This document shows, one piece after another, positions 7,989 through 49,792 of a stretch of DNA of 64,000 nt. Where the stretch lies: assembly GCA_030390025.1 (NCBI GenBank), contig CM059452.1, forward strand, positions 8,742,001 through 8,806,000. The letters run 5' to 3'. Both the position numbers and the translations under genes were made by a program. A model generated the notes under the pieces. That model saw only the letters and a list, made by a program, of their open reading frames with translations. It was not told the DNA's origin and ran no database searches. Each line of letters starts with the position of its first letter. Position 1 is the first letter of the stretch. The stretch is from Squalus acanthias (taxonomy: Eukaryota).

Positions 7989-8322
7989 ATGCTCCTGATT
8001 TACAGAGTTTCCCTGCTGATTTACACTCTGATCTGCACGGATGTGAGCGGTGAAGATGAGGTGGAGCAGCTCCCTCGGCGGGTGGTTGTTAGTGAAGAGG
8101 GAATCGTGTCCATCAACTGCTCCGCTACTGCTGTGCTTAGCGTCCTGCACTGGTACAGACAGCACCCGGATCAGACCCTCCAGCATCTGGTGATGGCCAC
8201 AAGCGGGGCCGATCAACACGGGAGGATCACTGCTTCAATCGGGGGAGGCAATAAACTCAGTGCCCTGACTGTGAGAGACGCGCGAGTGACAGACAGCGCC
8301 ACCTATCTCTGCGCCGTGAGCC
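7989..8322 (+). CDS. TRAV/TRDV: TCR alpha/delta V segment with leader and V in a single exon (no leader intron), intact
   Basis: Continuous ORF MLLIYRVSLLIYTLICT-DVSG-EDEVEQ...INC...WYRQ...YLCAVS. RSS CACAGTG-23-ACAGAAACC at 8323-8361. Confidence 0.88.
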
Positions 8323-8882
8323 CACAGTGTAACAAACAGGCGGAGAGTCCGCACAGAAACCTGCCCCGAGGGGGAGCGCCGCTCTGCTGTGTTTGGAGTA
8401 ACGGGATTGGGAGGGGCCCGGTTATAATAATCGGAGGGCAGAGAGAATGAACACAGAAAATAATAGGAAATATAGAAGAGAGAGAGTTAAATAAATTCTG
8501 AAATGAAGAGATTTTGAAACACAGACAGAGGAAAACAAAGCGAAGGTACTAAAGAAAGAATGAGAGAAAGAGAAAAATCAATGTAATAATACGTGTCGTG
8601 GACAGCAAATTAGGAAAGGAGGGAAAAAGAAATGAAAGAAAGTGAGAAATAACAAGTGAGAAACATAAATCTTAAAGTTAAGAGAAAGCCATAAAGAAAG
8701 AGATTCAGAAATAAAGTAAAATTTCCCTTCCCTTTAAGCTCACTCATATTATCCTTCCACCTATTTCACAGTTTAATTGTCTGAACCGCCTCTCCCAAAA
8801 CCCGGACGCTGGAAAGTTCGCCATAGATAAACTCACACTTTACTCAATTTATTATCCTAACAGTGTAAAGTTCTCAGAGTGA

Positions 8883-8897
8883 CCGCCAGAGGGCGCC
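8883..8897 (+). promoter_or_regulatory. CTCF-binding motif
   Basis: CCGCCAGAGGGCGCC, upstream of the V promoter at ~8950-9150. Confidence 0.6.
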
Positions 8898-9151
8898 GTG
8901 GTCACATGTTTCTCGCCGTTACCAACTGGAAATGATGGAGTCAAAGCTTGCAGTAACACTGCCCGCGGCAGCCCCGCCCACAGCTTCCGTCTGCTGCTCT
9001 CGCTTTAACCCGCCTTCTGTTATCGGAGAGCTTACTGCCTCTGTTACTTTTTTGGCATTGGTTGGATCAGCAGTGCAGTGCGGCGGGGATCTGTATTTCT
9101 GCTCCTGCAGAGGATTTCCAGGACTGCAGAGTTACAGACTCAGGGAGCGTC

Positions 9152-9627
9152 ATGTACAACCGTCTCGCACCGCTCCTCATCATTATATCACTTCTCAGTA
9201 AGTATTTCCTCCCCAGTTAAAATCCATTCTCGCCCTGACGGCTGTAACCCAGCTATGATAATTGGTGAAATGATCCGAATGATGATGGTGATGGTGATGA
9301 CTGTTACTATTATTTTATATTAGAATGGAGCCATCAAGACGCAGTGGAACAGCCGATTTCTGAAATAACGGTTGAAGAGGAAAGTAACGTCACACTAAAC
9401 TGCACCTTGAAAACAACCGCTGCTACCCTTTATGTGTACTGGTACAGTCAGCACCCCGGGCAGCCTCCACAGTACGTGTTTTATCTCTATGCAGGAATAG
9501 TAAACAGGAACCCTGAATTCACTGACCGATTCTCTTCTACTTTTAATAAAAGCAGCAAGATTACCGAGCTAACGATCAGCAATGCCCTGATCTCGGACAC
9601 CGCCGTGTATTTCTGTGCCATGAGCCC
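9152..9627 (+). CDS. TRAV/TRDV: TCR alpha/delta V segment, intact ORF (leader 9152-9197, V exon 9324-9627)
   Basis: Leader MYNRLAPLLIIISLL with GTAAGT, acceptor 9322-9323, DAVEQ...LNC...WYSQ...YFCAMSP. RSS CACACTG-24-ACAAAAACC at 9628-9667. Confidence 0.9.
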
Positions 9628-9690
9628 CACACTGATGCAGAGATATAGCGGAGCCCGTACAAAAACCACACTCAGAGTTCCAGTTAGTGC

Positions 9691-9705
9691 TCACCAGAGG
9701 GCGCT
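9691..9705 (+). promoter_or_regulatory. CTCF-binding motif just 3' of the V RSS
   Basis: TCACCAGAGGGCGCT ~23 bp after the nonamer. Another motif, CCACCAGAGGGCGTC, is at 10127-10141. Confidence 0.6.
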
Positions 9706-11069
9706 CTCACACCGATAAACACGCGATAATTCCGCCTCCACAGTGAGAGTCACAGGGACCTTCTAAATGTCGACAAAACACAACACTCCACATGAAAAGG
9801 TGAAGTCCACTGGCGGAATTACATTAGTTGGAGATTTCAAAATGCTAAAAATGAAATTCACAAATCCATCTGTAGTTCCTTTCTATGCCCCTTCCGTGCC
9901 TGCCAGTCCTTTCTCATCCCCTGTCTCTACTCTTTACCTATAATCGTATGAACTTTCTTCTTCCAATCTGTAGTTTAACGATGAAAAACATGTGCTGCTG
10001 CTCGGTATATTAATTCAGAACCGCTCTAACCCAGCTTCCCATAAACAGGAATTGCAGACAGTTCAGTGAATACACACAGGATTGCTCACACCCTGTCCAC
10101 CGACATCTGAGCAGTTCTCAGAATATCCACCAGAGGGCGTCAGCTCACAATATCCTTTGTTTGGCTCAGACCCCGGGCAGTGAGTTAAATGCTGTTTCTC
10201 CAACAGTTGTGTATATTTTGGAATGAACTGAAGATTAATGTTTGAAATCCACAATGGGCTGGGTCGGTACATCGGGCAATAATCATCACAAAAAGACATC
10301 CTTCACATCGAAGGATTGAATTTTGATACTAACCAGTGGGCAGGACAAGAGAGTGGAAGGATGTGGAAGATGGGGAAAGCAATAGTAAAATGTGAATGAA
10401 AGACACACCCTGAGATCTGATTTCTGAAGACATTAACTGTACTGATGCTGGAAATCGATGATAAAGGGGCGAAAAACAAATCGAAACTGCCTGTATTGTG
10501 TTTCTTTTTCTGCTCCTCATCATTTGTTAATATGCGAGATAGTTGTCAGGACAGTTTTTCATGCCCTGCTGATGTTGAGCTCTTGGTAACGAGAGCATGC
10601 ACCTCACCCTGGGGGCTTAGAACCCGCTCCCCGCGCTCTGCTCCCGGGCACTTTATACAGATGAGCGGTAAATTCCTGAAAAGCACCGCTAGGCTGTTCC
10701 CTCCATTCTCTCTCATTGGTAATCAAGCATCTGAAGATTATGGATCTTTAAATAAATCATTACAGGCAGAAAGAAGGTCAGAACTTAACAGATAGAATTT
10801 AAACAGCATTTTAATACAAACCACAGAAGGGGACAGTTCTTGAAACTCTGTTTAAATTACAGGGAGAGTTTATTCTTTAATCTGTTCAGTTGTTTGTTCA
10901 GTCACAGCAGACGTCATCATTCTAATATCAGGGATCTATAAATCATTCCGACAACATTGTTATTTCACCAGTGAACTGACCCGTGAGGGGAAAGCTCACT
11001 GGAGTCACGGTTAACAGTGTCCTGACGGTAAAACTAACGGAATTATAGAGAATGAATTGACCCTGGAAT

Positions 11070-13304: not shown

Positions 13305-13530
13305 GGCGCCCTCTGGCGGATATAATGGGAACTTTTACACTTTTGAGATCCTGGGTGAAAACAGACAGTCAGTGTGTCTATGGGCAGTTTCCAGTGCCCA
13401 TTTATAGCGAGATGTGTTGCGGTGATGCTGATGGCGAATGTAGAGCCTTTTACATCAACACTTACAGCGACAGAAACATTAATCAGATGAATTCGAGCTC
13501 GGAAATTGACAGCTTGCGCTCGCAGATTTA
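13305..13530 (-). pseudogene. Highly decayed TCR V relic retaining RSS and downstream CTCF motif
   Basis: Minus strand: F-strand-like FAISITAT..., heptamer CACACTG (13370-13376), exactly 23 nt, degenerate nonamer TCAAAAGTG, then CCGCCAGAGGGCGCC (13305-13319). Confidence 0.5.
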
Positions 13531-13839
13531 ACCCTTTCTGATCTGCAAAATAAACAACAACTCACAACCCGCATTCACAACAACTGACTTTCATTTCCTT
13601 TCAGTTCTACTGGTGCCAGATGCTCGTGACCTTTGTGCACAGGCTCCAGACAGTCAGCATGTTTTTCCTCCTGCATTTCCGGGTGTCCAGTGATTCCTTT
13701 CTCTGTGTCTCCGCACTGTGGGAACCCGAATACAAACTGGTCCCCTGCTCAGGGAGAACAAGCGACCGAGGCCCAGACAGGCCGCTGTCCATCTGTTTGT
13801 CAGTCAGCAGCCTGGTTACCTCTATGAAAGACTTTCACT

Positions 13840-14068
13840 NNNNNNNNNNNNNNNNNNNNNNNNNNNNNNNNNNNNNNNNNNNNNNNNNNNNNNNNNNNNN
13901 NNNNNNNNNNNNNNNNNNNNNNNNNNNNNNNNNNNNNNNNNNNNNNNNNNNNNNNNNNNNNNNNNNNNNNNNNNNNNNNNNNNNNNNNNNNNNNNNNNNN
14001 NNNNNNNNNNNNNNNNNNNNNNNNNNNNNNNNNNNNNNNNNNNNNNNNNNNNNNNNNNNNNNNNNNNN
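13840..14068. other. Assembly gap (N run)
   Basis: Ns; truncates the V gene at 14069-14284. Confidence 1.
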
Positions 14069-14284
14069 GGCTGTATAATTACAATACAACTGAACATCGT
14101 CTCCTTCATTTACTGTGGTTGCAGCCGGTGTCTGTGAACCGGAGTCTCCTCGCCCATGTCCTGCAAGAGCCCAGAGCGATATTAAATTAAACAATGTCAC
14201 TTCACTGTGTTTACCGCCCAGAATCAGCCCGTCACCCCAACACTTACCTGTGAAGCAAATCAGGGCAGTTGAACATAAATATAT
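14069..14284 (-). pseudogene. TCR alpha/delta V paralog of 3080-3511; start codon ATG->ATA; 3' part hidden in gap
   Basis: Near-identical leader, intron and FR1 (GHGRGDSGSQTPAATTVNEGDDVQLYCNYTA). Leader begins ATA TAT TTA. 14070-15165 duplicates 3295-4330. Confidence 0.75.
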
Positions 14285-14691
14285 ATCCCCACAGCTCAGG
14301 GGCTGCTCACGGGATGGCGCTGGGATCGACTGAATAAACATCCTTTAATTAACCTTCAGCACCTTCTAACGGGATCAGTTCCTCACCTTCACCTCTTGTG
14401 ATGTGAAGGGAAAACTCCAAACTGTATGTGGGTTTAAGACTCGTGTGTCTGTCAATGTCCGTCATTGACACCGACGGGCTTGTCTGTCTGCCATTCGCCT
14501 GTAATCTCACCTTAACTCATCCGCTTTCATTCACTGAGGGAGTTTGTCGAGTTTCCCCAAACAGTGTTCAGTGTTGAGTCAAGGTGGATCCTGATGGTTT
14601 TCTTCACTTCGGATCAACCTATTGATATTCATGTGTTCAGGGAACTGACCGATTAAATATAATGTATGATACAGATGTGAAACACAATGCT

Positions 14692-15165
14692 GTGTAACTT
14701 GTGAACTTATCAGTTAAGAGAGCTGCAGCTGTGACGAATAAATAAAAAGTAACAGCCAACATGTTTGCAGAGAGTTGGTGGTGGATTTGAACAGAACGGT
14801 TTGAAGCTGAAATTGTCTTGTCAAGAATTGGGAAGATGTTGAGTAATATCCGGTCTCTCTGCCGATTGGTCCGTTCCCGACAGAGTCAGCAGATCACATT
14901 CAATCAGCTCTCGGTCCTTTGTTCTCCAATTTATCCAATCAGTTTGCAGCTCCTTTGTTTTCCAATTCAACCAATCAGCTCACAGCTACTTTGTTCGCCA
15001 ATTCATGACGTCAGAGCGGGGATCAGAGAATGGAGTGAAATTGTTCTCCTCAGAACTGGACGAGGATTAAAGCCAATGTTCGCCCTTTAGCAGCGTCAGT
15101 CTGTGAGATGGGGCCAGTGACCAATAGTTAATGTTGTTCTGGTATCAGAGCCGGAGACTCCCATC
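14692..15165 (+). promoter_or_regulatory. V-gene promoter module: tandem CCAAT/CTTTGT units plus full CRE TGACGTCA
   Basis: TGACGTCA at ~15006-15013; repeated 'ccaatcag..cagct.ctttgtt' units; leads directly to the leader at 15179. Confidence 0.6.
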
Positions 15166-15178
15166 TAAACCAGACACC

Positions 15179-15530
15179 ATGTTTCTTACTGATAATAATG
15201 GTCGTGCTGCCCGGTGAGTCTATGTTTAAAATATCGTATGTATTTCATGGGTTATATTTACTCCCAGACTTCTGACAGATTCAGTATTTTGTTACAATGG
15301 CGAAGCCTCATTTTCCCAGGATCCATCAGAATTAACGGTTCAGGAAGGACAGATCTGAATACTGAGCTCTCGTTACTCCACAGCCGATAGATTTCCCTAC
15401 CTCTTCTGGTACAACCAGTATCCCCGGGGAAGATCCGAGTTATTTAATGAGGAGATACAGCTCGGGGCAGGGAGTGAAGTCTCCAGATTTCCCAGACCGG
15501 TTCTCCGCTGATTTGGGCAAAGACACAGAC
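15179..15530 (+). pseudogene. TCR V pseudogene (family of 20412-20842), truncated in FR3, no RSS
   Basis: Frameshifted leader, mutated acceptor (ttacaa), QDPSELTVQEGQI* stop, then LFWYNQYP...SPDFPDRFSA before homology ends. Confidence 0.85.
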
Positions 15531-15690
15531 ACAAATACAACTCGTTGAAATAGAAACCTGGCTGTCTTTAGTCTCCGTGGGTTTGGGATCAAATTAACCC
15601 CACAGAAAGCAGCACAAAAGAACACTTAATGGAGCTGTAAATTCTCGCTGAGGTTTTTGTCCGGGGCCTTTGCTTTTATCTGACGCTGTG

Positions 15691-16225
15691 CCTCACTGCA
15701 CAGTAATAGACCGCTCCGTCCTCCACACTCAGGCTGCTTATATTGAGGTAACCGTACTTTCTAGACGTGTTAGCAGCTGCCAGATATTGTCCTGAGATTT
15801 CGTCTCCCTTCAGTGCTACCACTTTGCTAATTATCCAGCTTGGTGGCTGTGCCGGTTTCTGCCGATACCATTGCATGTAGTCAATATCCGGGCTTTTATA
15901 TTCACAATCTAACTGCACCGAACCCCCTGTTGACACGGCAATTGTCACCGGAGACTGAGTTACTGGATCTGCACACAGCCCGCCTGTGAAGATAGGGGAA
16001 CAGAAGAGCAGAAGATTAAATCGAAACTTGTGTCTATCTGTATGAGAGTGTGTAACCCTCCATCTACACAGCTGTCCATCATGTGGATATTTCTGATCGG
16101 TAATTGCACTAAATCCCTGCACACGCTCTTTGCATCAACCAGCTAACCTGTGTTTTAAATATAATCCAATACTTACTGTTCAACACAGCCGCCAGTATTA
16201 TTAGAAATTGACTGAATCTCTCACA
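15691..16225 (-). CDS. TRAV/TRDV: TCR alpha/delta V segment: intact V exon (15691-15983) and RSS; leader exon (ends 16177) lacks its own ATG
   Basis: GLCADPVTQSP...LDC...WYRQ...YYCAVR. RSS CACAGCG-23-ACAAAAACC at 15652-15690. Leader ...ERFSQFLIILAAVLN with GTAAGT at 16171-16176. Confidence 0.75.
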
Positions 16226-16242
16226 GTGACTTGGAATTGAAT

Positions 16243-16625
16243 GAACATAAGAACATAAGCAATAGCAGCTGGAGTAGGCCATTCGGCCCTTCGAGCCTGC
16301 TCCGCCATTCAATGAGATCATGGCTGATCTTCTGCCTCAATTCCATTCACCGGCCTTATCGCCATATTCTTTGATGCCCTTACTAGTCAGAAATCTATCG
16401 ACTTCTGTTTTGAATATACCCAATGACTGAGCCTCCACAGCCCTCTGGGGTAGAGAATTCCAAAGATTCACCACCCTCTGTGTGAAGAAATTTCTTCTCA
16501 TCTCAGTCCTGAATGGCCTAACCTTTATCCTGAGGCTGTGGCCCCTGGTTCTAGACTCCCCAGCCAAGGGAAACATTCTCCCAGCATCCACCCTATCAAG
16601 CCCTGTAATAATTTTGTATGCTTCA
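16243..16625 (-). mobile_element. CR1 LINE 3' fragment inserted between V promoter and leader
   Basis: ORF DAGRMFPLAGESRTRGHSL...WN and tail cttatgttcttatgttc. Confidence 0.9.
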
Positions 16626-16788
16626 ATGAGGCAGAGATTGAGAAGGAGAGCGGTAACCCGGGCTGTTCAGCTCATTGTTCCACCCACACACTGCAGGGGG
16701 CGTCCCCATTGTGACCTCATTCAGGCTTCGATTGCTGTTGGCCTTGGCGTTTGCATCACATGACTTTTTAATTATCATTCTTGAGTTT

Positions 16789-16803
16789 GGCGCCCTCTGC
16801 TGG
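16789..16803 (-). promoter_or_regulatory. CTCF-binding motif
   Basis: Reverse complement CCAGCAGAGGGCGCC. Confidence 0.6.
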
Positions 16804-17019
16804 CGCATTGTATTACCTAAGCCTTAGAATGAGGTCATTGAGGAGATTTAAGGTTTTTGGTCATGTATAAAAACACGATTGCCAGCTATTGGCTCTCAAA
16901 GATCAAGATTATAGCTGATTAAAGCCGCTCATTATTTCTGATGCGGTATAATCCCTTAATTACGCACTCACTCTATTTCTTCCCAGTCGCTTGTTCAGTG
17001 AGCAAGAGCATTTTGACCA

Positions 17020-17345
17020 CAGACGTCATGAAGTGACGAACAAAGGAGCTATGAGCTGATTGGATGAATTGGAGAACAAAGTAGCTGTGAGTTGATTGGA
17101 AGAATTGGAGTAAAAAGGAGCTGTGAGCTGCTTGGATCTCACCTGTTGACTCTGTCAGGATGAACCAATCGGCAGAGACGCCGGATATCATTCAACACCT
17201 TCCCAAGTCTTGACTAAAATATTTCAGGTTTAACCCGTTCTGTTCAAATCTGTCATCAACTCTCTGCAAACATGTTAGGAGTTACTTTTTATTCATTCGT
17301 CACAGCTGCGGCTCTCTTAACTGGTAAAGTTTACAAGTTACACAA
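17020..17345 (-). promoter_or_regulatory. Third copy of the CCAAT/TCF/CRE promoter module, inverted
   Basis: Reverse complement aligns with 14692-15012; points toward the V leader at 16177-16225. Confidence 0.55.
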
Positions 17346-17489
17346 TCTTCCCTCTTGTCACTGCCATAGAGAATCTTCCTTTTAACTGTATTTTCTCTCT
17401 ATTTCCTGTATGTTCCGTCACCTTGATGCTATCAGTTATAATAAAATGATAATAAAAGTTTAAAGTTGTGTATTTCTATATTTCTGCAG

Positions 17490-17835
17490 GTGCTGTGGTG
17501 CGGACTCGGTCTCACAGGGGCCGCTTGCAGCGATGCAGTTTGAAGGAGACTCGGTGACCAGTAATTACAGCAATTCGACCACTGCTCCTTCACATTCCTT
17601 ACAACTGTACCGTCAGGACCGCGACAATGGGCCAACATTGCTGATCTACAGTCCTTCTTTACGGAGATGTTTTCAAAGCAGAGGGCACGGGGGCTCGAAT
17701 TTCCGCATTTCACGACATTTCAGAAAGTGAGGGGAATTTCACCATCCGCGGCCTACGGCTGTCTGACAGCGCGGTGTATCACTGCGGGCTGAGAGACACA
17801 GTGACAGGAACCAGAGGGAGCCCCGTACACACACA
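17490..17835 (+). pseudogene. TCR alpha/delta V pseudogene; frameshifted, no leader exon seen, degenerate nonamer
   Basis: ADSVSQ...QFEGDSVTSNYS...LQLYRQD...[frameshift]...SEGNFTIRGLRLSDSAVYHCGLR. CACAGTG-23-ACACACACA at 17797-17835. Confidence 0.85.
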
Positions 17836-18585
17836 CTGCCGAAATGTGACAAGGACAACTGGATAGCGGGCACTGTGGGGAGAAACGGGGACTGTCAGTA
17901 CTTCTCACAGGAGAGTGTCTGTGTAAAAATGACAAATCAATCGCTATCCAACTAACAGTACAGAACAGGAAACATCATGTTTATTATTAATAAAAATAAT
18001 TGTGTTACTAATTTGATAATAAGGTATTCGATGGGACGGTGCTACCAAACCCTTTTCATGTAATGGGCACCTCAACTTTCAAACTTAGTGAAACAAATAT
18101 AAACCAGTTCTCATTCCGTGTCAGAATCGCACTCAGAGATGGCGCTCCAGTCGGCAGGAAATGAACTGAACGGAAGGAACACATTCAGTGACGATGTAAT
18201 AAACCATTGAGGAGTCAAAAACCCTTCAGAACAAAGAAGTCTCGGCTGAACTCTGACCCCGCGAGACTCCCATTCCCCAGCTGGTGCGCAAACTCAGAGA
18301 AAACTGTCCAGAAAACAGGCAAAAGAGCAACAGTCAATAGTCTGAAGATGAAGGTGGCAGTGATTCAGGAGAGACAGTTCCCAGTGAGTAACAGGGAAAA
18401 CAACGCGGAAACTGCACAGCCTGAACCCAACCGACAAATGAGAGACTTTGGGAACAGTTCTCAGGATGGCCGGCACCGCAAACAGCACAAAGTGAGCCTT
18501 ATATCCGGCTTCAGCAGGCGGAGCCTCTGATCTACAAAGCGGCGGGAGTTTCTGTACCAGGGTTTAACTGGTTTCCATCAGTGTG

Positions 18586-19060
18586 GTCTCAGGGCGCAGT
18601 AATAAACTGCAGTGTCGGTCAGCTGCAGCCCCGAGATGGTTAAACTGGTGAATTTAGTCCAGGTCTGGATTTCTGCAGAGAAACGGGTTTTATCAAAATC
18701 TGCTTTATGCTCAACACCATCAACTCCATCATGATCCTTCCACAGTATAAACTCGGGCTGTGTGTCTGGGTGGTTCCGGTACCAGTATAAATAATTAAAG
18801 GTGCTCCATTTAGTGTCATAGGTACAGTTTACAGTCACCGCTTCTCCTTCTGTCTTAACTCCCGGGGACAGCGGCTGAGTGACAGAATCTCCAAGACTCA
18901 GATCTGAAAAACATGTTCAAACAGGAAAAGATCAGACCGGCGGGTGTTTAAAATTCAGATTCAAACCATGTTAGAAATGAGAGAAAAGATTAAATGTGTT
19001 TGGTCCACAATTACCTGTCAGAAATGCCCCCCACACAGCCCAGATGCTGAGTAGCCGCAT
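18586..19060 (-). CDS. TRAV/TRDV: TCR alpha/delta V segment, apparently functional (leader 19015-19060, V exon 18586-18903)
   Basis: Leader MRLLSIWAVWGAFLT with GTAATT, DSVTQ...NC...WYRN...YYCALR. RSS CACACTG-23-ACAGAAACT at 18547-18585. Confidence 0.92.
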
Positions 19061-19609
19061 TGTCGCTGTCCGCTCTGTAAAAGGGGGGTTGGATATTTGA
19101 AGACACCCGTTCTAATCCCCGCCCTCAATAATCTGCTGTCGTGTCTCAGGATGCTCTCACCTCACTTCCTTGTGTCCCCAGTGGTGCTGTGAGACCGGTA
19201 GGTGGTGAGCTGGCTGCCAGTGAATGGAAACACCCCGAGCTGGGCTATCGTCAGTGTCCTTTTGGGGAATGGTTCCGCTTTTAGAGACCGGGGGTGGGAA
19301 TGAAACTCTTGCCTGGTTATTGGAACCCGGAAGCTGAGGGATTGTTAATGGTGACGGAACATATTCCAGCATTAAAGAGACATTCTGAAGGACAATGGAC
19401 ATTGGGGGAACTCTGTGCTTGGGGCCTGTTTTAAAGAGCACAATCACTACCTTGTGAAATCTGTTCATTGTGTATAAACTGTCTCTGACCCAGCAACATA
19501 CTCTGATCAAATAAACCCTGTGTACAGGCCACGATCAATGGGTCCGGGACACTGACAGGGGAGATGTGTAAAGGGCTGCACAATATTGCAGGCAGGCACG
19601 GAAGGGGCA

Positions 19610-20125
19610 TCATAGATTCATAGAATCTTACAGCACAGAAGGGGTATTCGGCCCGTCGTGCCTGTTTAGTCCCATATCCCAGCTTTTTCTCCATAACCCT
19701 GCAAATTAGTCCTCTTCAAGTACATGTCCAATTGCCTTTTGAAAGTTCCCATGAAATCTGATTCCACCACCCTTTCAGGCATTGCCTTTCAGATCTTAAC
19801 AACCTCTTTGTGAAGAAATGTCTCCTCATTTTCCCTCTAGTTCTTTTTCCAATTATTTTAAATCTATTCCCTCTGGTTATCAACCCACTTGCCAGAGGAA
19901 ATAGTTTCTCCCTATTTGCTCTGTCAAAACCCCTCATAATTTTGAATACTTCTAATAGGTCTCCCCTTAACCTTCTCTGCTCTTAGGAGAACAATCCCGG
20001 CTTCTACAATCTCTCCACATAACTGAAGTCCCTCATCCCTGGTATCATCCTGGTAAACCTCCTCTGTACCCTCTCCAGGGCCTTGGCATCCTTCCTAACG
20101 TGTGGTGCCCAGAAATGTACACAAT
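19610..20125 (-). mobile_element. CR1 LINE 3' fragment
   Basis: MRGFDRANREKLFPLA...RGNRFKIIGKRTRG similarity; tail gattctatgaatctatg. Confidence 0.85.
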
Positions 20126-20411
20126 AGAGAAAGGACAAAAGGGGAGTTAAGGCGCCACAGACATGATTTGTGAAGTTCATTTTTATTATAAATACGAGTT
20201 GAAATCACCTAAAAGATCCCCAAGTGGACCTGACCTGTTCTTGCTGAGTGTTGTGACTTGTCGCTCTGTTAAGAATCTCCCTGTGACTCTCGCTGTGGAG
20301 GCTGAATTATCGCTGCTGGTTATCGATGTGAGAGCGCCCTCTGGTGATCACTAACTGGAACTCTCAGTGTGGGTTTTTGTACGGGATCCGCTATATCTCT
20401 GCAGCAGTGTG

Positions 20412-20842: not shown

Positions 20843-20884
20843 GGTGTCTGGTTTAGAATTAGACAGAAAACAGCAGATCATTTT

Positions 20885-22916: not shown

Positions 22917-25668
22917 CAGGATAATGAAACAGTTTGGGTAGAGATTAGGAATAATAAGGGGAAAAAACACTGGTGGGCGTAGTATATAGGCCTCCTAATA
23001 GTTGCAACTCTGTTGGAAGAAGTATTAATCAGGAAATAGTTGGGGCATGTAATAAGGGAACAGCTATAATTATGGGGGATTTTAACTATCATATTAACTG
23101 GACAAATCAAATTGGGCAGAGCAGCCTTGAGGAAGAGTTTATTGAGTGTCTTAGGGATGGATTTCTTGAGCAGTATGTAACTGATCCTACAAGGGGGCAA
23201 GCAACCTTGGACCTGGTACTGTGTAATGAGTCTGGATTAATTAATAATGTCCTAGTTAAGGATCCCCTTGGAATGAGTGACCATAACATGGTTGAATTCC
23301 ATATCCAATTAGAGGGTGAGAAGGTTGGTTCTCAAACAAGGATACTGAGCTTGAATAAAGGAGACTATGATGGCATGAGAGCAGAATTGATTAAAGTGGA
23401 CTGGGAAAATAGATTAAAGGGTAAGACGGTACATGAGCAGTGGTGTTCATTCAAGGAGTTATTTTACAACTTTCAAAATAAATATATTCCACTGAGGAAA
23501 AAAGGGTGTAAAAGAAATGACAGCCATCCATGGCTAAGTAAAGAAATTAAAGAAAGTATCCAACTAAAAACAAGGACATATAAGGTAGCCAAAGTTAGTG
23601 GGAGGATAGAAGATTGGGAAGTCTTCAAAAGACAACAAAAAGTAACTAAAGGATTGATTAAGAAAGGGAAAATAGACTATGAAAATAAATTAGCAAAAAA
23701 TATAAAAACAGATAGCAAGAGTTTCTATAGTTATATAAAAAGAAAAAGGGTGGTTAAGGCAAACGTAGGTCCCTTAGAGGATGAGACCGGGAAATTAATG
23801 GTGGGAAACATGGAGATGGCAAAAATGCTGAACAAATATTTTGTTTCAGTCTTTACGGTAGAGGACACTAAGAATATCCCAACACTGGACAAACAGGGGG
23901 CTCTAGTGGGGGAGGAGCTAAATACGATTAAAATCACTAAGGAATTGGTACTCAGTAAAATAATGGGACTCAAGGCGGATAAATCCCCTGGACCTGATGG
24001 CTTACATCCTAGGGTCTTGAGGGAAGTGGCAGTAGGAATTGTGGATGCTTTGGTAATAATTTTCCAAAACTCCCTGAACTCAGCAAAGGTCCCGGCAGAT
24101 TGGAAAACTGCTAATGTAACACCCTTATTTAAAAAGGGTTGTAGGCAGAAGGCTGGAAATTATAGACCAGTTAGCCTAACATCTGTGGTGGGTAAAATTT
24201 TGGAGTCTATTATTAAGGAGACAGTAACGGAACATTTAGATAAACATAATTTAATAGGACAAAGTCAGCATGGCTTTATGAAGGGGAAGTCATGTCTGAC
24301 AAATTTGCTCGAGTTCTTTGAGGACATAACGTACAGGGTGGATAAAGGGGAACCAGTGGATGTAGTGTATTTAGACTTCCAGAAGGCATTCGACAAGGTG
24401 CCACATAAAAGATTATTACTCAAGATAAAAAATCACTGGATTGGGGGTAATATTCTGGCATGGGTGGAGGATTGGTTATCTAACAGGAAGCAGAGAGTTG
24501 GGATAAATGGTTCATTCTCGGACTGGCAACCAGCAGCCAGTGGTGTTCCGCAGGGGTCGGTGCTGGGTCCCCAACTCTTTACAATCTATATTAACGATTT
24601 GGAGGAGGGGACCGAGTGTAACATATCAAAGTTTGCAGATGATACAAAGATGGGAGGGAAAGTAGAAAGTGAGGAGGACATAAAAAACCTACAAGGGGAT
24701 ATCGACAGGCTGGGTGAGTGGGCAGAGATTTGGCAGATGCAATACAATATTCGAAAATGTGAGGTTATGCACTTTGGCAGGAAAAATCAGAGAGCAAGTT
24801 ATTATCTTAATGGCGAGAAACTGGAAAGTACTGCAGTACAAAGGGATCTGGGGGTCTTGGTGCAAGAAAATCAAAAAGTTAGTATGCAGGTGCAGCAGGT
24901 GATCAAGAAAGCCAATGGAATGTTGGCTTTTATTGCTAGGGGGATAGAATATAAAAACAGGGAGGTATTGCTGCAGTTGTATAGGGTATTGGTGAGACCG
25001 CACCTGGAGTACTGCATACAGTTTTGGTGTCCATACTTAAGAAAAGACCTACTTGCTCTCGAGGCAGTACAAAGAAGGTACACTCGGTTAATTCCGGGGA
25101 TGAGGGGGTGGACATACGAGGAGAGGTTGAGTAGATTGGGACTCTACTCATTGGAGTTCAGAAGAATGAGAGGCGATCTTATTGAAACATATAAGATTGT
25201 GAAGGGGCTTGATCGGGTGGACGCGGTGAGGATGTTCCCAATGATGGGTGAAACTAGAACTAGGGGACATAATCTTAGAATAAGGGGCTGCTCTTTCAAA
25301 ACTGAGATGAGGAGAAACTTTTTCACTCAGAGGGTAGTAGGTCTGTGGAATTTGCTACCCCAGGAAGCTGTGGAAGCTACTTCATTAAATAAATTTAAAA
25401 CAGAAATAGACCGTTTCCTAGAAGTAAAGGGAATCAGGGGTTACGGGGAGCGGGCTGGAAATTGGACATGAGTTTGAGTTCGGATCGGTCAAGGCCCTGT
25501 GGGTGGCGGAGCGGGCCCAGGGGCTGAGTGGCCTGGTCCTGCTCCTGCTTCTTGTGTTCTTTAGAGTTGAGGTTGGATCAGATCAGCCATGATCTCATTG
25601 AATGGCGGAGCAGGCTCGAGGGGCCGATTGGCCTACTCCTGCTCCTATTTCTTATGTTCTTATGTTCT
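22917..25668 (+). mobile_element. Young 5'-truncated CR1 LINE with uninterrupted 832-aa ORF2 (C-terminal endonuclease plus RT)
   Basis: YRPP, GDFN and SDH endonuclease motifs; [19 protein letters not shown] and FADD RT motifs; tail (cttatgtt)n; TATAT target-site duplication. Confidence 0.97.
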
Positions 25669-29719: not shown

Positions 29720-29728
29720 TCACTTGAT
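29720..29728 (-). CDS. IGHM: IgM TM2 exon (IK-stop)
   Basis: cttttacag|ATC AAG TGA. Confidence 0.9.
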   Translation of the reverse strand: MK

Positions 29729-29868
29729 CTGTAAAAGAGGGATAAAAGAATGAAGCAGAGATTTAGTGGTTTGGGGCATTTATCTCAGGGTATTTATCAA
29801 TGAAACTTTTAGAGATTTGTCAAACCGCTTCAGTCAGATCGAAGTGTGAGTGGATTGAATCTTCTCAC

Positions 29869-29996
29869 CTTCACTAGAGTGACGGCAGCGCTGTAGGACA
29901 TGCTCAGGAAGAACAGGATGATGAATGTGGAAGCGGTTGTCCAGATGTTGCCGCTCTCTTCCTCATAGTCTTCAATCAAGATGTGGTCTGAGGAAT
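29869..29996 (-). CDS. IGHM: IgM TM1 exon
   Basis: (D)SSDHILIEDYEEESGNIWTTASTFIILFFLSMSYSAAVTLVK, a CART-type TM motif; AG and GTGAGA splice sites. Confidence 0.93.
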
Positions 29997-33751: not shown

Positions 33752-34143
33752 TCATTGACAAGAATTGACGGTGTCCATCAGAACAAGGGAAATGTTGACA
33801 AAACTGGGTTTACCGCTGGATTTATTAACCGTTCTGTTGATGATCTTCAAGGGGATCGCTTCATGTCCCACCACACAGGAGTAAGAAGCGCCGCTGGCCC
33901 ACTCCTCCGCTGCAATGGATAACAGGCTGTACATGAAGAAGGAACTGCTGCCGTTCTCCGCCATCACCTCGGTGTTCTTGTAGTTGCCGGAATTCACCGG
34001 CTTGTCATTGACGGTCCACTTGACGAAGATCTCTCGGGGGGAGAAACCTCTCACTAAGCAGGTGAGACTGACGAACCTCTGAGCGGAGACTTCTTCTGCC
34101 GGGGGCAGGAGGACAGACACGGACGGTTCCCGCGGATCTTTAG
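33752..34143 (-). CDS. IGHM: IgM Cmu4 exon plus secretory tailpiece (internal TM donor after 33814)
   Basis: [13 protein letters not shown]...[16 protein letters not shown]...[11 protein letters not shown]...SS|[20 protein letters not shown], with NIS glycosylation site and penultimate Cys. Confidence 0.97.
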
Positions 34144-34661
34144 CTGCAGAACAATCACAACAAAGGTCAATAAACTGGAGAATTCCAGAGACAATGAAAC
34201 CGGCGGTTAGATGTGAGAGAAATGTGCTTTACGCTGAATTTTAAAGGATTCCCTTTTCCCCTCTGTGTCCTGTCCGGTTTTCCGGCCCGGAGCAGAGGGT
34301 GATACAATCCTTCTCTGTGGGAGCTTGAAGAGTTGGACTGGAAAATTGTATAGAATTTATATTATAGAAACAGACCATTCGGCCCAACTGGTCAATGGCG
34401 CTGTTTATGCTCCACACGAGACTCCTCCCACCTTACTTCATCTAACCCTAATAACATATCCTTCTATTCCTTTTTCCCTCACTGACTTATCCAGCTCCCC
34501 CTTAAATGCATCATCTCTGGTCCCAGAGGGTTTAGTTAGTGGAATTACCCATTGAATTATTAGAGCAGTCCATTAAAACACTTAATATTATGAATTGGGC
34601 CGTGCACAAGCACCGGAAATAGTCACAGAGTCTCACTAATTGCTACAATCTCACCGCTCAC

Positions 34662-34970
34662 CTTTTTCCTTGTGGATGGAATCTCTTATAGGAGTCGGCA
34701 TATCCTGATGGCTCACCACGCAGTAGAACTCATCCCCACTCAGCCAGGCTTGTGTCGAGATGTTTAAGTTGCTGATCACGCTGTTGGGAGCCTCTCCGGG
34801 TTGGACGGCAATCTCTGATTTCAAAGTCTCCTTTTCTCGGGTCCAGGACACGTTGACTCCATAAGGAGCATTAGACACGACGCAGGTTAAGGTCACCGTC
34901 GCCTCCAGTAAAACCTGTTCTAGTGACGGTTGCGGAAGAGTGATTTCTGGATCGTTGCATTGGATCTCAT
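34662..34970 (-). CDS. IGHM: IgM Cmu3 exon
   Basis: [33 protein letters not shown]...W...[22 protein letters not shown]; 309 nt, phase-1 splice sites. Confidence 0.95.
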
Positions 34971-36640: not shown

Positions 36641-36849
36641 CTAAATAGAACAGATGCCCTTTCTAGCAGTGGGTCCCGAGACAGTTACCAGTAAAGAGTT
36701 CCAGACACCTACTGTCGCTCCGAATATGATCAGCCAACTCAGGATAAACCTGAGACCGAGGACACCTCACTCACTGACGGACATCAGAGCAGAGAGAAAC
36801 CTTCTTTGGCGAGGTTATGGAATCATGAACCTGAGGAATCCTGATTCAG

Positions 36850-37578: not shown

Positions 37579-37896
37579 CCTTAGATCTGGAGATGTTTCT
37601 GCTTTGGGTGACCCCTTGATGAGAGACCTGGCAGGTATAGACTGAGTCGGCGAACCAATCCCTGGCGGGGAATGTCAGCCGACTGGTCGCCGAGAAGTTC
37701 CCGTTCACTTCAAAGACGGGAGAGGTAACGAAGCCTAAATCCATGAGTTGTCCTTTCTTCAGCCAATTCACGGTCAGTGACTTTGGACGGAAATCGATGA
37801 TTGAACAGACGGCGGTTACAGACCTGCTGCTGATGATTTCTTCATTGGAACTCAGGGTGAGGATCACAGTTGGAGGGACGATATCACGTTTCCAAC
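37579..37896 (-). CDS. IGHM: IgM Cmu2 exon
   Basis: [12 protein letters not shown]...VCSIIDFRP...VNW...[20 protein letters not shown]; 318 nt, AG/GTAAGT. Confidence 0.95.
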
Positions 37897-38019
37897 CTTC
37901 AAAAGAACACATGTTAATGAAATTCCTTATAAAATAAATGATTAAGAAATGCAAAGTGTCCTTATATTTTAACAGGCCCTTTACTGTCAGGCTCACACTA
38001 ACCTGGCACTTCCAGAGAG

Positions 38020-39420
38020 CAGAACTTTGCACAGTATTCTAAGAGCGATATGGAGACCGGAACTCTACACAGTACAGGAAGTGTGCTATGGAGACCAGAA
38101 CTCTACACAGTACTCTAAGTGTGATATGGAGAACAGAACTGTGCACAGTACACTAAGTGTGATATGGAGAACAGAACTGTGCACAGTACACTAAGTGTGA
38201 TATGGAGAACAGAACTGTGCACAGTACACTAAGTGTGATATGGAGAACAGAACTGTGCACAGTACACTAAGTGTGATATGGAGAACAGAACTGTGCACAG
38301 TACACTAAGTGTGATATGGAGAACAGAACTGTGCACAGTACTCTAAGTGTGATATGGAGACGAGAACTGTGCACAGTACACTAAGTGTGATATGGAGAAC
38401 AGAACTGTGCACAGTACACTAAGTGTGATATGGAGAACAGAACTGTGCACAGTACACTAAGTGTGATATGGAGAACAGAACTGTGCACAGTACACTAAGT
38501 GTGATATGGAGAACAGAACTGTGCACAGTACACTAAGTGTGATATGGAGAACAGAACTGTGCACAGTACACTAAGTGTGATATGGAGAACAGAACTGTGC
38601 ACAGTACTCTAAGTGTGATATGGAGACGAGAACTGTGCACAGTACACTAAGTGTGATATGGAGAACAGAACTGTGCACAGTACATTAAGTGTGATATGGA
38701 GAACAGAACTGTGCACAGTACATTAAGTGTGATATGGAGAACAGAACTGTGCACAGAATTGTAAGTGTGATATGGAGACCAGAACTGTGCACAGTACACT
38801 AAGTGTGATATGGAGAACAGAACTGTGCACAGTACACTAAGTGTGATATGCAGAACAGAACTGTGCACAGTACATTAAGTGTGATATGGAGAACAGAACT
38901 GTGCACAGAATTGTAAGTGTGATATGGAGAACAGGACTGTGCACAGTACACTAAGTGTGATATGGAGAACAGAACTGTGCACAGTACACTAAGTGTGACA
39001 TGGAGACCAGAACTGTGCTCAGCACTCCAAGTGTGATATGGAGACCAGGACTGTGCACAGTATTGTAAGTGTGATATGGAGAACAGAACTGTGCACAGAA
39101 TTGTAAGTGTAATATGGAGACGAGAACTGTGCACAGTACACTAAGTGTGATATGGAGACTACAACTGTTCACAATACTCTAAGTATGTTGTGGAGACCAG
39201 AACTGTGCACAGTATTGTAAATCTGATATGGAGGCCAGAAATGCGCTCAGCACTCCAAGTGTGATATGGAGACCAGAACTGTGCTCAATGCACTAAGTGT
39301 AATATGGAGACTGGAACTCTGCAAAGTACACTAAGTGTGATATGGAGACCAGAAGTGTGCACAGTACTCTATACGTGGGATATGGAGACCAAAACTGTCC
39401 ACAATACTCCAAGTGTGGAC
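38020..39420. repeat. 38-bp minisatellite (~36 copies) in the Cmu1-Cmu2 intron, apparently CR1-derived
   Basis: Unit gtgtgatatggagaacagaactgtgcacagtacactaa. The minus strand reads HL.YCAQF(W/C)SPY, like CR1 ORF2 HLEYCVQFWSPY. Confidence 0.92.
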
Positions 39421-39495
39421 TAACCAGGTTTCGGCAAAAGTTGAGCATAACGCCTCACCTTTTCACAGCTCCCCCCTGTATCCCACAAAACTGAC

Positions 39496-39795
39496 CTGGC
39501 ATTTTGACGCTTAAGTCCGACCCACTTTGTCGAACCTGGCAGTAGATTGTGCTGCTCCCCACCTCTGACTCGGTGATGGTTAACTGGCTGCTCAGGGTGT
39601 AGGTTCCCTTCTTGTTGAACACTGACGGGTAGGTCTTCAATCCAGTGGTGATCGGCTCTTTATCTTTACTCCAGGAAAGGCTGGTGATTTCCGGGAAGTA
39701 GTCCATCGCCAAACAGCCGTAGGTGACGGGGCCGCCGGTGTTGGGTTGTTCACAGGAGGAGAGCAGGGCGTAGAGGGTGGGAGGAGACTGTGTCG
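39496..39795 (-). CDS. IGHM: IgM Cmu1 exon
   Basis: [34 protein letters not shown]...SW...IYCQVR...MP; 300 nt, AG/GTCAGT; light-chain-linking Cys position retained. Confidence 0.95.
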
Positions 39796-42939: not shown

Positions 42940-45030
42940 CAGATACAGAGTAAAGCTCCCTCTGCACTGCCCTGCCATACGCTGTACCCTCAGGTATAGG
43001 AAGGGATTGATTCCGAGCAACGCCAAGTCTGCACAGCACTGTCAAACACTCCGGGTAAGGCACCGCACTGGTTAAATACAGAGTAAAGCCCCATCTACAT
43101 TGCACAATCAAACATTCCCAGGGCAGGTACAACATGGGCTAGATACAGAGTAAATTCTCCCTCTACACTGAACCATCAAAGATTCACGGGGCATAACAGC
43201 ACGGGTTAGATACAGAGTAAAGCTCCGTCTACACTGTCCAATCAAATCAAACACTCCCAGGGCAGGTACAGCACGGGTTCGATACAGAGTAAAGCTCCGT
43301 CTACACTTTCCAATCAAACACTCCCAGGGCAGGTACAGTACGGTTAGATACAGAGTAAATCGCCCTCTAAACTGTCCCATCAAACAATTCTGGGGCAGCT
43401 ACAGCATGGGTTACACACAGTAAAGCTCCCTCTACACTGTCCCATCAAACACTCCCAGGGCAGGTACAGCACGGGTTAGATACAGAGTAAAGCTCCCATC
43501 AAACACTCCCAGGGCAGGTACAGCACGGATTAGATGCAGAGTAAAGCTCCCTCTACACTGTCCCATCAAGCACTCCCAGGACAAGTACAGCACGGGTTAG
43601 ATACAGAGTAAAGCTCCCACTACACTGTCCCATCAAACACTCCCAGGACAGGTACAGCACGGGTTAGATACAGAGTAAAGCTCCCTCTACACTGTCCCAT
43701 CAAACACTCCCAGGACAAGTACAGCACGGGTTAGATACAGAGTAAAGCTCCCTCTACACTGTCCCATCAAACACTCCCAGGGCAGGTACAGCACGGTTAG
43801 ATACAGAGTAAAGCTCCCTCTACACTGTCCCATCAAACACTCCCAGGGCAGGTACAGCACGGGTTAGATACAGAGTAAAGCTCCCTCTACACTGTCCCAT
43901 CAAACACTCCCAGGGCAGGTACAGCACGGGTTAGATACAGAGTAAAGCTCCCTCTACACTGTCCCATCAAACACTCCCAGGGCAGGTACAGCACGGGTTA
44001 GATACAGAGTAAAGCTCCCTCTACACTGTCCCATCAAACACTCCCAGGGCAGGTACAGCACGGGTTAGATACAGAGTAAAGCTCCCTCTACACTGTCCCA
44101 TCAAACACTCCCAGGGCAGGTACAGCACGGGTTAGATACAGAGTAAAGCTCCCTCTACACTGTCCCATCAAACACTCCCAGGGCAGGTACAGCACGGGTT
44201 AGATACAGAGTAAAGCTCCCTCTACACTGTCCCATCAAACACTCCCAGGGCAGGTACAGCACGGGTTAGATACAGAGTAAAGCTCCTCTACACTGTCCCA
44301 TCAAACACTCCCAGGGCAGGTACAGCACGGGTTAGATACAGAGTAAAGCTCCCTCTACACTGTCCCATCAAACACTCCCAGGGCAGGTACAGCACGGATT
44401 AGATGCAGAGTAAAGCTCCCTCTACACTGTCCCATCAAGCACTCCCAGGACAGGTACAGCACGGGTTAGATACAGAGTAAAGTTCCCTCTACACTGTCCC
44501 ATCAAACACTCCCAGGGCAGGTACAGCACGGGTTAGATACAGAGTAAAGCTCCCTCTACACTGTCCCATCAAGCACTCCCAGGACAGGTACAGCACGGGT
44601 TAGATACAGAGTAAAGCTCCCTCTACACTGTCCCATCAAACACTCCCAGGGCAGGTACAGCACGGGTTAGATACAGAGTAAAGCTCCCTCTACACTGTCC
44701 CATCAAACACTCCCAGGGCAGGTACAGCACGGATTAGATGCAGAGTAAAGCTCCCTCTACACTGTCCATCAAACACTCCCAGGGCAGGTACAGCACGGGT
44801 TAGATACAGAGTAAAGCTCCCTCTACACTGTCCCATCAAACACTCCCAGGGCAGGTACAGCACGGGTTAGATACAGAGTAAAGCTCCCTCTACACTGTCC
44901 CATCAAACACTCCCAGGGCAGGTACAGCACGGGTTAGATACAGAGTAAAGCTCCCTCTACACTGTCCCATCAAACACTCCCAGGGCAGGTACGGCACGGG
45001 TTAGAAACTGATTAAAGCTCCTTCTACAGT
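42940..45030. repeat. 67-bp satellite, ~30 copies, in the JH-Cmu1 intron
   Basis: Unit cagagtaaagctccctctacactgtcccatcaaacactcccagggcaggtacagcacgggttagata. Confidence 0.95.
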
Positions 45031-48476: not shown

Positions 48477-48518
48477 GGCACAAATACAACAGTTGCTGAA
48501 AGAGTTAATGTTTCTTAC

Positions 48519-48566
48519 CTGCAGTCACCGTCACCATGGTGCCTTGGCCCCAGTAGTCCATGGCGT
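48519..48566 (-). CDS. IGHJ: IgH JH segment
   Basis: AMDYWGQGTMVTVTA with GTAAGA donor. 23-RSS: heptamer 48567-48573, nonamer ACAATAACC at 48597-48605. Confidence 0.97.
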
Positions 48567-48957
48567 CACAGTGTTACATTCCCCGGGCTGGGTCACACAA
48601 TAACCGGCTCTGTGTAAAACAGAGAGAAATCCAACATTAGTTTAAATATTCACATCCCAGAGACAAAGTAAAGTCACGATGGATCTTCATAAAATGATAA
48701 ATGTGTTAATGGATACTTTTCACTCTTTATAAATTCCCTGATGTTTTATATTTCACAGAGTAACCCTTGAACAGTTAATGAAATCACCAACTGATCAATG
48801 ATTAATTATCACAGTTTATCCATGTTAAACTGTGCTAGTGGACAGTGCTGGACACAAATAGGACTTCACTGCATCTACAGTTGGATTGTGAAAGCGACAC
48901 TGACCCAGCCTCACTCAATTAGTGCTGATGGTTTTTGTATTGACAGTAACTGCTGTG

Positions 48958-48970
48958 CCACCCAGTGTAC
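48958..48970 (-). other. IGHD: IgH D2 segment (GTACACTGGGTGG), 12/12 RSS
   Basis: V-side CACAGTG-12-CCAAATACT (48971-48998); J-side CACAGCA-12-ACAAAAACC (48930-48957). Confidence 0.93.
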
Positions 48971-49348
48971 CACAGTGAGACACGCCGTGCCAAATACTCC
49001 GGCGGACTGTTAACAGTAAAATACAGAGATGAAATTCCAGAGCCTCTCAAAACCCTGATTCCGACTCCCCTAAGAGTGCATCAGTGAGATATTTCAGTTT
49101 GTGCTGGTCATTATCTTTATAAAGGGGATTGGAAAACTTCTGAAGCATCTGTGCAGATTTAACACGACAATCAACACTAATAAAGCAGAACACTTTTACA
49201 CATTTTGAGACATCTTCATTCATTTTACCCATTATATTAATTTAAGCCTCATTTTCTCCGCCGCTCCTGCCGTGGCAGTGATCGCAGGTGTGAGCAAACT
49301 CGCTGTCTGGGGTTTTTGTATGAGGAGCTCGCTCTGTACAGCACCGTG

Positions 49349-49362
49349 ACCCACTGTAGTAC
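49349..49362 (-). other. IGHD: IgH D1 segment (GTACTACAGTGGGT), 12/22 RSS
   Basis: V-side CACAGTG-12-ATAAATACT (49363-49390); J-side CACGGTG-22-ACAAAAACC (49311-49348). Confidence 0.93.
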
Positions 49363-49792
49363 CACAGTGACAGGAACCCGCATAAATACTGCACTCACTC
49401 CCTGTTCAGTGCCGCCTCTCAACATTCACTTCAAATAGACATTCACTTCTGATCTAGTTTAGAATTTATCCAACAGTTTACACAACGTATTAGAAAGTGA
49501 ACACAGTCCCAGCCCACTCCCTCCAGGTATCAATCATATTGAAACGAGCATTAACTCCAGCTCTGCCATTGCTGACACTGTGAACAGTAAACATGAGCAC
49601 AGCCAAAACCTCTCTTCAGTACATCGGTTACTGTGCTAGATTTTTACCATTGAATTTTCACTCTGTTAATTCAGTAAGAAGCTGTTAAGATCGCGTTTAA
49701 TACAATTACTGACCGTCAGATTATGATGGAAGTTGTTGAATTTCCCCTCGTTCTGTTCTTGTACGGGTCCAGCCCTGGTTCCTCTCGCTGTG

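Follow-up and report, generated by a model that had tools for sequence, protein, structure and literature searches.

Organization of the locus

The window, a 64,000-nucleotide stretch of Squalus acanthias DNA, contains an IgM minicluster on the minus strand and TCR-type V genes on both strands. It also contains predicted CTCF-type motifs, scored against what we take to be their consensus.

3041..3369, minus strand: TCR-type V exon with 23-RSS
4949..5280, minus strand: TCR-type V exon with 23-RSS
7989..8322, plus strand: V7989, TCR alpha/delta V gene, with one open frame spanning leader and V
8323..8361, plus strand: 23-spacer RSS of V7989 (consensus heptamer, nonamer with one mismatch)
9152..9627, plus strand: V9152, TCR alpha/delta V gene, open, leader 9152-9197 spliced to V exon 9324-9627
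9628..9667, plus strand: 24-spacer RSS of V9152 (heptamer with one mismatch, consensus nonamer)
13306..20347, minus strand: three predicted reverse CTCF-type motifs (13306, 16790, 20334), between V7989/V9152 and the IgM cluster
15652..15969, minus strand: TCR-type V exon with 23-RSS
18547..18886, minus strand: TCR-type V exon with 23-RSS
29720..29996, minus strand: IgM TM1 (29996-29869) and TM2 (29728-29720) exons
33752..34970, minus strand: IgM CH3 (34970-34662), CH4 with secretory tail (34143-33752)
37579..37896, minus strand: IgM CH2
39496..39795, minus strand: IgM CH1, 60-74% identical to named shark mu chains
48519..48605, minus strand: JH (48566-48519) with 23-RSS (48567-48605)
48930..48998, minus strand: D2 (48970-48958), 5' 12-RSS (48971-48998), 3' 12-RSS (48957-48930)
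49311..49390, minus strand: D1 (49362-49349), 5' 12-RSS (49363-49390), 3' 22-RSS (49348-49311)
49754..50274, minus strand: IgM leader (50274-50229), VH exon (50101-49793), 23-RSS (49792-49754); VH ~0.4 kb from D1
55773..55786, plus strand: predicted CTCF-type motif upstream of VH, directed away from the cluster

The IgM cluster is complete from the leader, VH, D1, D2 and JH through CH1-4, the secretory tail, TM1 and TM2, with open secreted and membrane frames. VH, D1, D2 and JH lie within ~2 kb and carry RSSs in the order 23 / 12-D-22 / 12-D-12 / 23, and the Cmu1-4, secretory tail and TM exons are open and have splice sites, the pattern of a functional shark IgM minicluster. The 5' RSSs of D1 and D2 both read on the plus strand, each with a consensus heptamer, a 12-nucleotide spacer and a nonamer with three mismatches. 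Contigs of runs X1-X7, which come from two coded organisms and are RNA by our guess, were also searched; in X1-X4, VH-to-JH joints occur in 11 of 15 among the matches listed (of 47), together with leader and JH-CH1 splices; the joints are not assignable to the window's copy or to its species. Germline-joined shark IgM clusters are known (PMC5192425), and similarly VD-DJ, VDD-J, V-DDJ and VDDJ arrangements are common among the paralogs here, with at least one join in 28 of 40 loci (L001-L040). Unlike these, the cluster in the window has no germline join at all.

The original prediction that both plus-strand V genes are intact and carry 23/24-spacer RSSs is borne out at the sequence level. The top solved-structure matches of V7989 are nearly all human and mouse TCR alpha chains, and its close family has about 40 members on the same contig. 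V9152 belongs to a large family and clusters with a shark TCR-alpha-like protein (support 100/91), while its solved-structure matches are mostly scFv with a few TCR chains. A protein search for longer relatives of V9152 returned three gene models, weak evidence in which a C domain is present in 0 of 3. The 3' end of V9152 is covered by 0, 1, 0 and 3 contigs in X1, X3, X6 and X7, too thin a cover to count either way; three of these four contigs read through the unrearranged RSS, one ends in adapter and none contains a V-(D)-J junction. As TCR alpha/delta-type V genes with 23/24-RSSs, V7989 and V9152 have the makeup of the TCR V array of the elasmobranch AgRC, in which TCR V exons between IgH clusters have already been published (Flajnik et al. 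2025, PMC12227049).

The window is part of a 4.3-Mb array in which 27 Cmu1 exons (5.97-10.26 Mb; 16 on the plus strand and 11 on the minus strand) are mixed with TCR V genes on both strands, and a V7989-family gene occupies 19 of the 26 gaps between Cmu1 exons. Elsewhere in the array, at L101 and L102, IgM tails likewise lie next to TCR V genes. The TCR D-delta, J-delta, C-delta, J-alpha and C-alpha segments are found on a separate contig, C911, which is unjoined to that of the window and on which the constant exons are putatively named, from their position. The V families recur on C911, and so does Cmu1, in a single copy at the contig start that lacks upstream sequence and has no part in the counts below. 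The D-delta of C911 has a 12-D-23 layout like that of IgM D1. Many paralogs match the blocks at 92-99% identity, and the V genes are separated from the IgM cluster by an N stretch; V9152 and both flanks keep the same order and orientation in all six paralogous blocks fetched.

RSS geometry and predicted routes to a TCR V-D-D-JH-Cmu gene

RSSs were scored against motifs that we take to be the consensus. Near-consensus RSSs with 22-24-nucleotide spacers number six versus zero expected by chance (30 shuffles), and perfect-heptamer 12-RSSs two versus 0.03. The 23/24-RSSs of V7989 and V9152 share the orientation of the 5' 12-RSSs of D1 and D2, as predicted. A 12/23-legal inversion of 39-41 kb would yield TCR V-D-D-JH-Cmu, and our outcome table includes such RSS pairs, for which the coding joint would stay chromosomal and read in the same sense as JH-Cmu. 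For the four minus-strand V exons the table agrees with the original prediction: joined to the 5' RSS of D1 or D2, they would leave the coding joint on a circle. V7989 and V9152 also face the 3' 12-RSS of D2, and a join there would delete JH-Cmu.

How special is this permission? To the right of the window, four plus-strand V matches 17-36 kb from D1 reach the same product by inversion, and one minus-strand V, 37.5 kb away, reaches it by deletion. Because shorter inversions and a plain deletion give the same product, the permission is not particular to V7989 or V9152. The 12/23 and orientation logic of the original prediction stands, but it is generic to the region and no product was found. An insulating boundary at 27-29 kb, named as a result that would speak against the chimera, was rejected: no CTCF-type motif occurs there at up to one mismatch, and the reverse motifs sit at 13.3-20.3 kb.

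Search for the reverse chimera

At 24 of 41 other JH loci a V is joined to D, and the V is an IgH V in every case, with about 15 distinct junctions by our reading. The joined V genes score 90-177 bits to IgH V and at most 62 bits to TCR V, and their clade has support of 98/93. A germline-fixed TCR V-D-JH join is therefore present at 0 of 24 joined loci, although 0 of about 15 junctions bounds the TCR V share only below ~18% (our arithmetic, 95%), and lymphocytes may behave differently from germ cells. The pattern-based JH list holds at least 40 loci, and at least three further JH, diverged ones that it had missed, were added separately. Four Cmu1-upstream stretches (L050-L053) contain no V or JH match within 10 kb and were omitted from the counts; four C130 clusters and two C3 clusters, with VH-like matches beside JH, are also outside the join counts.

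Among public CH1-bearing proteins, mostly gene models and thus weak evidence, 7 of 13 have a V in front, always VH. A TCR V on shark Cmu was not found in the literature surveyed, an incomplete survey that does not establish absence from print, and the available portions of PMC2191748, PMC3632137 and PMC2901073 do not describe a TCR V-JH-Cmu product.

Discussion

The locus combines an intact IgM minicluster with the shark array of TCR alpha/delta V genes that surrounds it. We consider it likely that the RSS geometry permits reverse joins incidentally, as a result of IgM clusters and V blocks having been duplicated and flipped together. In B cells, the window's cluster probably rearranges internally because its VH is so close to D1, and TCR delta may also borrow this VH, which is the direction already known. 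Reverse joins, whether inversions or deletions, would be at most rare by-products of thymocytes, whose IgH D segments RAG can reach, and would not contribute to the antibody repertoire. The original prediction describes correctly the geometry of a layout that had already been published, and the product was not found.

IgH-TCR chimeras in mouse were reportedly described by Callen in 2009. In human lymphocytes, RAG-mediated inv(14) produces IgH-TCR alpha/delta chimeras such as IGHV3-69-1 with TRAJ7 (PMC10014221, in the part available). This is likewise a 12/23-legal inversion of IgH with TCR alpha/delta segments on a single chromosome, but it joins an IgH V to a TCR J, spans a chromosome arm and is aberrant. 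The mouse Trdv5 gene lies 3' of the constant exons in opposite orientation and joins the 12-RSS of Trdd2 by inverting a segment that includes J and C delta (PMC4995090). Trdv5 belongs to one locus and is demonstrably used, whereas the window combines V and C of different receptor classes and offers geometry alone. By analogy, the physiological Trdv5 inversion, being of the same shape, would count against the incidental reading. In sharks, trans-rearrangement of IgM/IgW VH to TCR delta D-J-C, and TAILV, are cited in PMC12227049 and PMC5931798. This system shares with the window the locus and the 12/23 compatibility of IgH and TCR delta segments. However, the VH-to-TCR delta direction is documented in transcripts, and the geometry of the window runs in the opposite direction, as the original prediction had stated. 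The AgRC paper, in its accessible text, treats only joins of IgH V to TCR delta; the present analysis counts the interleaving and tabulates the RSS routes.

It is possible, though doubtful, that thymocyte DNA often carries reverse joins. TCR V genes accessible for alpha/delta rearrangement would then invert or delete the intervening DNA and so capture IgH D segments in their vicinity. The resulting V-D-D-JH-Cmu genes would be sterile or their products degraded, using up V genes or IgM clusters. According to the nurse shark work (PMC2435157, as far as available), IgH D segments are extensively cut in thymocytes and many IgH loci per thymocyte are partly rearranged. The cutting of D, together with common VH-to-TCR delta joins, indicates a region shared by RAG, which counts against an incidental geometry. 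Frequent joins also accord with the flanks of D1 (12-D-22/23, as in D-delta), with V-to-cluster distances of only 17-41 kb and with the interleaving of 27 clusters with V genes. However, in the same study only 1 of 58 thymic VDD-J clones is an apparent interlocus join, and even this is IgH-to-IgH, in data that cover about 15 loci with flanking TCR V genes outside the assay. Moreover, VH competes at 0.4 kb, and the predicted CTCF-type motifs, by mammalian rules, would place the cluster outside the V loops. In favour of the incidental reading, nurse shark IgH rearrangement is described as staying in the minilocus, and thymocytes as rearranging IgH while lacking Ig transcripts (PMC2435157). The transcripts in question start from VH promoters; a joined TCR V would come with a promoter of its own, and their absence may not carry over to reverse joins.

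Antibody heavy chains with a V domain from the TCR pool, whether because RAG joins a TCR V to IgM D-D-JH by inversion or deletion or because a NARTCR V-D-J is spliced to the VH-less Cmu of locus L030, appear improbable. We regard it as quite improbable that B cells produce TCR V-D-D-JH-Cmu chains in particular and that these chains assemble with light chains and join the antibody repertoire. Every part is intact and the joins are 12/23-legal, but TCR V is absent from all 24 germline V-D joins and all seven V-bearing public mu proteins, and the accessible text of PMC2435157 describes B-cell IgH rearrangement as confined to the minilocus. Such chains would also need TCR V chromatin and promoters to be open in B cells, plus pairing of the V with VL. 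Finally, an assembly artefact of this highly duplicated region in adjacency or relative orientation, to which the near-identity of the blocks, the N stretch and the placement of the TCR D-J-C end on C911 might point, is scarcely credible, given six of six paralogous blocks collinear across the N stretch, IgM tails adjoining TCR V genes at L101 and L102 as well and the layout published for four other elasmobranchs.

A TCR V on IgM would mean that V exchange between shark B- and T-cell receptors runs both ways, and the rule that shark IgH rearranges only inside its minicluster would fail. It would also provide a living model of the step by which IgNAR is proposed to have arisen (PMC12227049, in the part available), the transfer of a TCR-type V to an IgH constant region. 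If the joins are absent, despite 27 clusters tens of kilobases from legal partners, the locus becomes a clean one for asking what confines RAG to the minicluster.

NARTCR-type cassettes and VH-less JH loci

The window holds no TCR V and JH together within 20 kb. Simple inversion of a window-type cluster was rejected as the origin of VH-less JH loci, since no inverted VH or D occurs in the 10 kb past the TM exons. A protein search with NAR-type V returned 53 proteins, weak evidence in which a C1-set domain occurs in none. Among 40 JH loci, the only TCR-type V segments within 9.5 kb upstream belong to NARTCR-type cassettes. These cassettes lie directly upstream of VH-less JH-Cmu genes, and at L030 a VH-less but intact Cmu gene is located downstream of a NARTCR V-D-J.

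Joining geometry of the window

The original prediction held that the RSS layout of the window permits a reverse chimera, in which a TCR V is joined to IgM D-D-JH-Cmu by an inversion of ~40 kb; the documented shark direction is IgH VH to TCR delta. An RSS scan located each of the elements concerned at the expected position.

TCR alpha/delta V genes and 5' 12-RSSs of the IgM cluster (RSS scan)
7989-8322, plus strand: V7989, with a 23-RSS at 8323-8361
9152-9627, plus strand: V9152, with a 24-RSS at 9628-9667
49363-49390, reads on the plus strand: 5' 12-RSS of D1
48971-48998, reads on the plus strand: 5' 12-RSS of D2

Near-consensus RSSs with 22-24 spacers number six in the window versus none in 30 shuffles, and perfect-heptamer 12-spacer sites number two versus 0.03. 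Both V genes have an open reading frame. The top solved-structure matches of V7989 are nearly all TCR alpha chains and those of V9152 are mostly scFv; in a tree from which none of the 36 rows was dropped, V9152 clusters with a TCR-alpha-like protein from shark. V7989 is intronless, with leader and V in one open frame, and thereby differs from its neighbour V9152. The minus-strand IgM cluster (VH-D1-D2-JH-Cmu) is complete, its secreted and membrane frames are both open, and its CH1 shares 60-74% identity with named shark mu chains.

Joining outcomes were tabulated for pairings of 15 V RSSs with the three 12-RSSs of the IgM cluster. As anticipated, V7989 or V9152 would reach D1 or D2 by an inversion of 39-41 kb that yields a sense V-D-JH-Cmu, and six left V genes or pseudogenes on the minus strand would put the coding joint on a circle. 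An inversion spanning J and C is physiological for mouse Trdv5 (PMC4995090). The prediction overlooked the V genes that lie a short way beyond the right edge of the window, which are a cheaper route to V-D-JH-Cmu than V7989 and V9152: the same product would arise from four plus-strand candidate V matches via shorter inversions (17-36 kb) and from one minus-strand candidate via a plain 37.5 kb deletion. It also overlooked that V7989 and V9152 are oriented toward a third site, the 3' 12-RSS of D2; its nonamer is consensus, and joining to it would delete JH and Cmu. The VH of the cluster lies 0.4 kb from D1.

V usage in germline-joined IgM clusters

Germline joining is frequent in shark IgM clusters (PMC5192425), and such clusters thus provide a fossil record of RAG choices. 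For 40 other JH segments (L001-L040) we fetched ~9.5 kb of upstream sequence, and we added one further JH from L049; together with the window's own, these 41 loci cover all 27 Cmu1 (CH1 exon) copies of the array on the contig carrying the window. The 40 loci comprise eight that are unjoined, five with D or J joins and a free V, 23 with a V-D join and four that lack VH. With L049, a V-D join is present in 24 of 41 loci, and the joined V domain is an IgH V, from one of two families, in all 24. These domains score 90-177 bits against IgH references and at most 62 against TCR references, and they group with mu chains of nurse shark in a single clade (support 98/93). TCR V queries on the same JH loci found none adjoining D or JH. 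By our own reading, the joins represent ~15 distinct junctions; since all use IgH V, the 95% upper bound on the TCR-V share is ~18%. The germline joins rule out TCR-V dominance, not rarity, and germ cells differ from lymphocytes. The second VH family, found on IgM clusters L001, L003, L005, L006, L013, L023, L026, L035 and L038, is 45-57% identical to the window's VH, and its eight joined members form a separate clade (100/100).

An interleaved IgM and TCR V array

The window occupies 8,742,001-8,806,000 of contig C29. This contig carries 27 close Cmu1 copies at 5.97-10.26 Mb (16 plus, 11 minus), and TCR V matches, whose counts are minimum values, extend across the same interval on both strands. 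A V7989-family gene is present in 19 of the 26 gaps separating Cmu1 copies. A separate contig (C911) contains the same V families, one Cmu1 and, at 401-519 kb, an Ig-like V run. It also has a 12-D-23 segment, J segments that carry a 12-RSS, and two C exons, which from position we take to be TCR delta and then alpha, the expected order. The run (L081-L092) consists of more than 20 tandem Ig-like V genes at ~4 kb spacing upstream of the TCR D-J-C and is presumably the array known as TAILV. D-delta and IgM D1 have the 12-D-22/23 layout in common, so any unjoined cluster could legally pair with nearly every V in the array. Flajnik et al. have described TCR V exons positioned between IgH clusters (PMC12227049).

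The geometry and 12/23 logic of the prediction stand, and its interpretation is supported in part. No TCR V occurs in the 24 germline V-D joins. We consider it probable that the geometry is incidental to the known interleaved locus and that reverse joins arise, at most, as rare by-products. Such joins would matter if true.

RAG accessibility and expression

Nurse shark thymocytes carry many partial IgH rearrangements without Ig transcripts (PMC2435157); D segments are thus RAG-accessible in a cell type that also has its TCR V genes open, and rare reverse joins are still plausible. The same study describes IgH rearrangement as staying within the minilocus, with an apparent interlocus join in one of 58 thymus VDD-J clones. 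In the mouse study including Trdv5, RAG activity is mostly kept inside CTCF loops and off-target joins favour convergent sites (PMC4995090). CTCF-type sequence motifs, which are predicted sites, number 10 in the window versus 0.75 expected.

CTCF-type motifs in the window (motif scan, predicted)
6.3-10.1 kb (first at 6279), forward: five motifs
13.3-20.3 kb (to 20347), reverse: three motifs
55773 and 63910, forward: two motifs

The window scan found none between 20.3 and 55.7 kb, hence none across the IgM cluster, which is predicted to fall outside the V loops under mammalian CTCF rules. The motifs are concentrated in the V array, one lying 24 bases beyond the V9152 nonamer. A single motif lies upstream of VH in 15 of the 40 paralogous loci and points away from the cluster in all 15; the 15 motifs probably go back to a single duplicated site.

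That reverse joins are frequent yet silent in thymocytes is an unlikely alternative, and an expressed antibody with a TCR V is less probable still. Contigs from four sequencing runs (X1-X4), RNA by our guess, are dense over leader, VH and JH; VH-JH joints account for 11 of the 15 joints listed (47 in total), and loose contig ends show JH spliced to CH1. These contigs support normal use of the IgM gene family rather than of the window's copy specifically. The 3' end of V9152 was almost uncovered, with 0, 1, 0 and 3 contigs from runs X1, X3, X6 and X7; of these four, three continue across an unrearranged RSS, one runs into adapter, and no V-(D)-J junction is present. Seven of 13 public CH1-bearing proteins, mostly gene models, have a V domain in front, and it is VH in all seven. 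A literature search found no report of a TCR V on shark Cmu, though the review and the original articles closest to the subject were outside its reach. An assembly artefact is scarcely credible. A stretch of N separates the V genes from the IgM cluster, and collinearity across it is seen in six of six paralogous blocks.

NARTCR-type cassettes and other features

The four JH loci without VH (L011, L012, L025 and L030) also lack D, and in them a 67-bp repeat fused to JH replaces its RSS. A leaderless V with a 23-RSS lies on the same strand 2.4-4.5 kb upstream of JH, and NAR-type V, D and J lie still further upstream, an order that we take to be the NARTCR layout. The cassette (NAR V, D, J, support V) is tandemly repeated at three of the four loci. 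The name NARTCR also appears in PMC12227049. RAG joining of the cassette V genes to these JH segments is impossible because JH has no RSS. A splice from NAR J to CH1 is conceivable, since donor and acceptor agree in phase. L056 and L057 lie downstream of L030, and L012 was read with L054-L055; across L030 and L056-L057, the sequence matching NAR V, the support V, CH1-4 and TM1 is free of stops, and the NAR V of L012 is broken. A C1 domain was found in none of 53 public relatives of NAR V. Another fetched locus carries a minus-strand NARTCR-type cassette (L047:2868-6882) with NAR V germline-joined to D, whose support V could reach IgM D1 by plain deletion.

The window also contains an open frame of 837 codons (22958-25468), presumably a LINE-type reverse transcriptase from its motifs, and four long tandem arrays, with units of 52 bp (31722-33321), 38 bp (38015-39417), 67 bp (43042-45028) and 61 bp (6810-7794), three of which lie within IgM introns.
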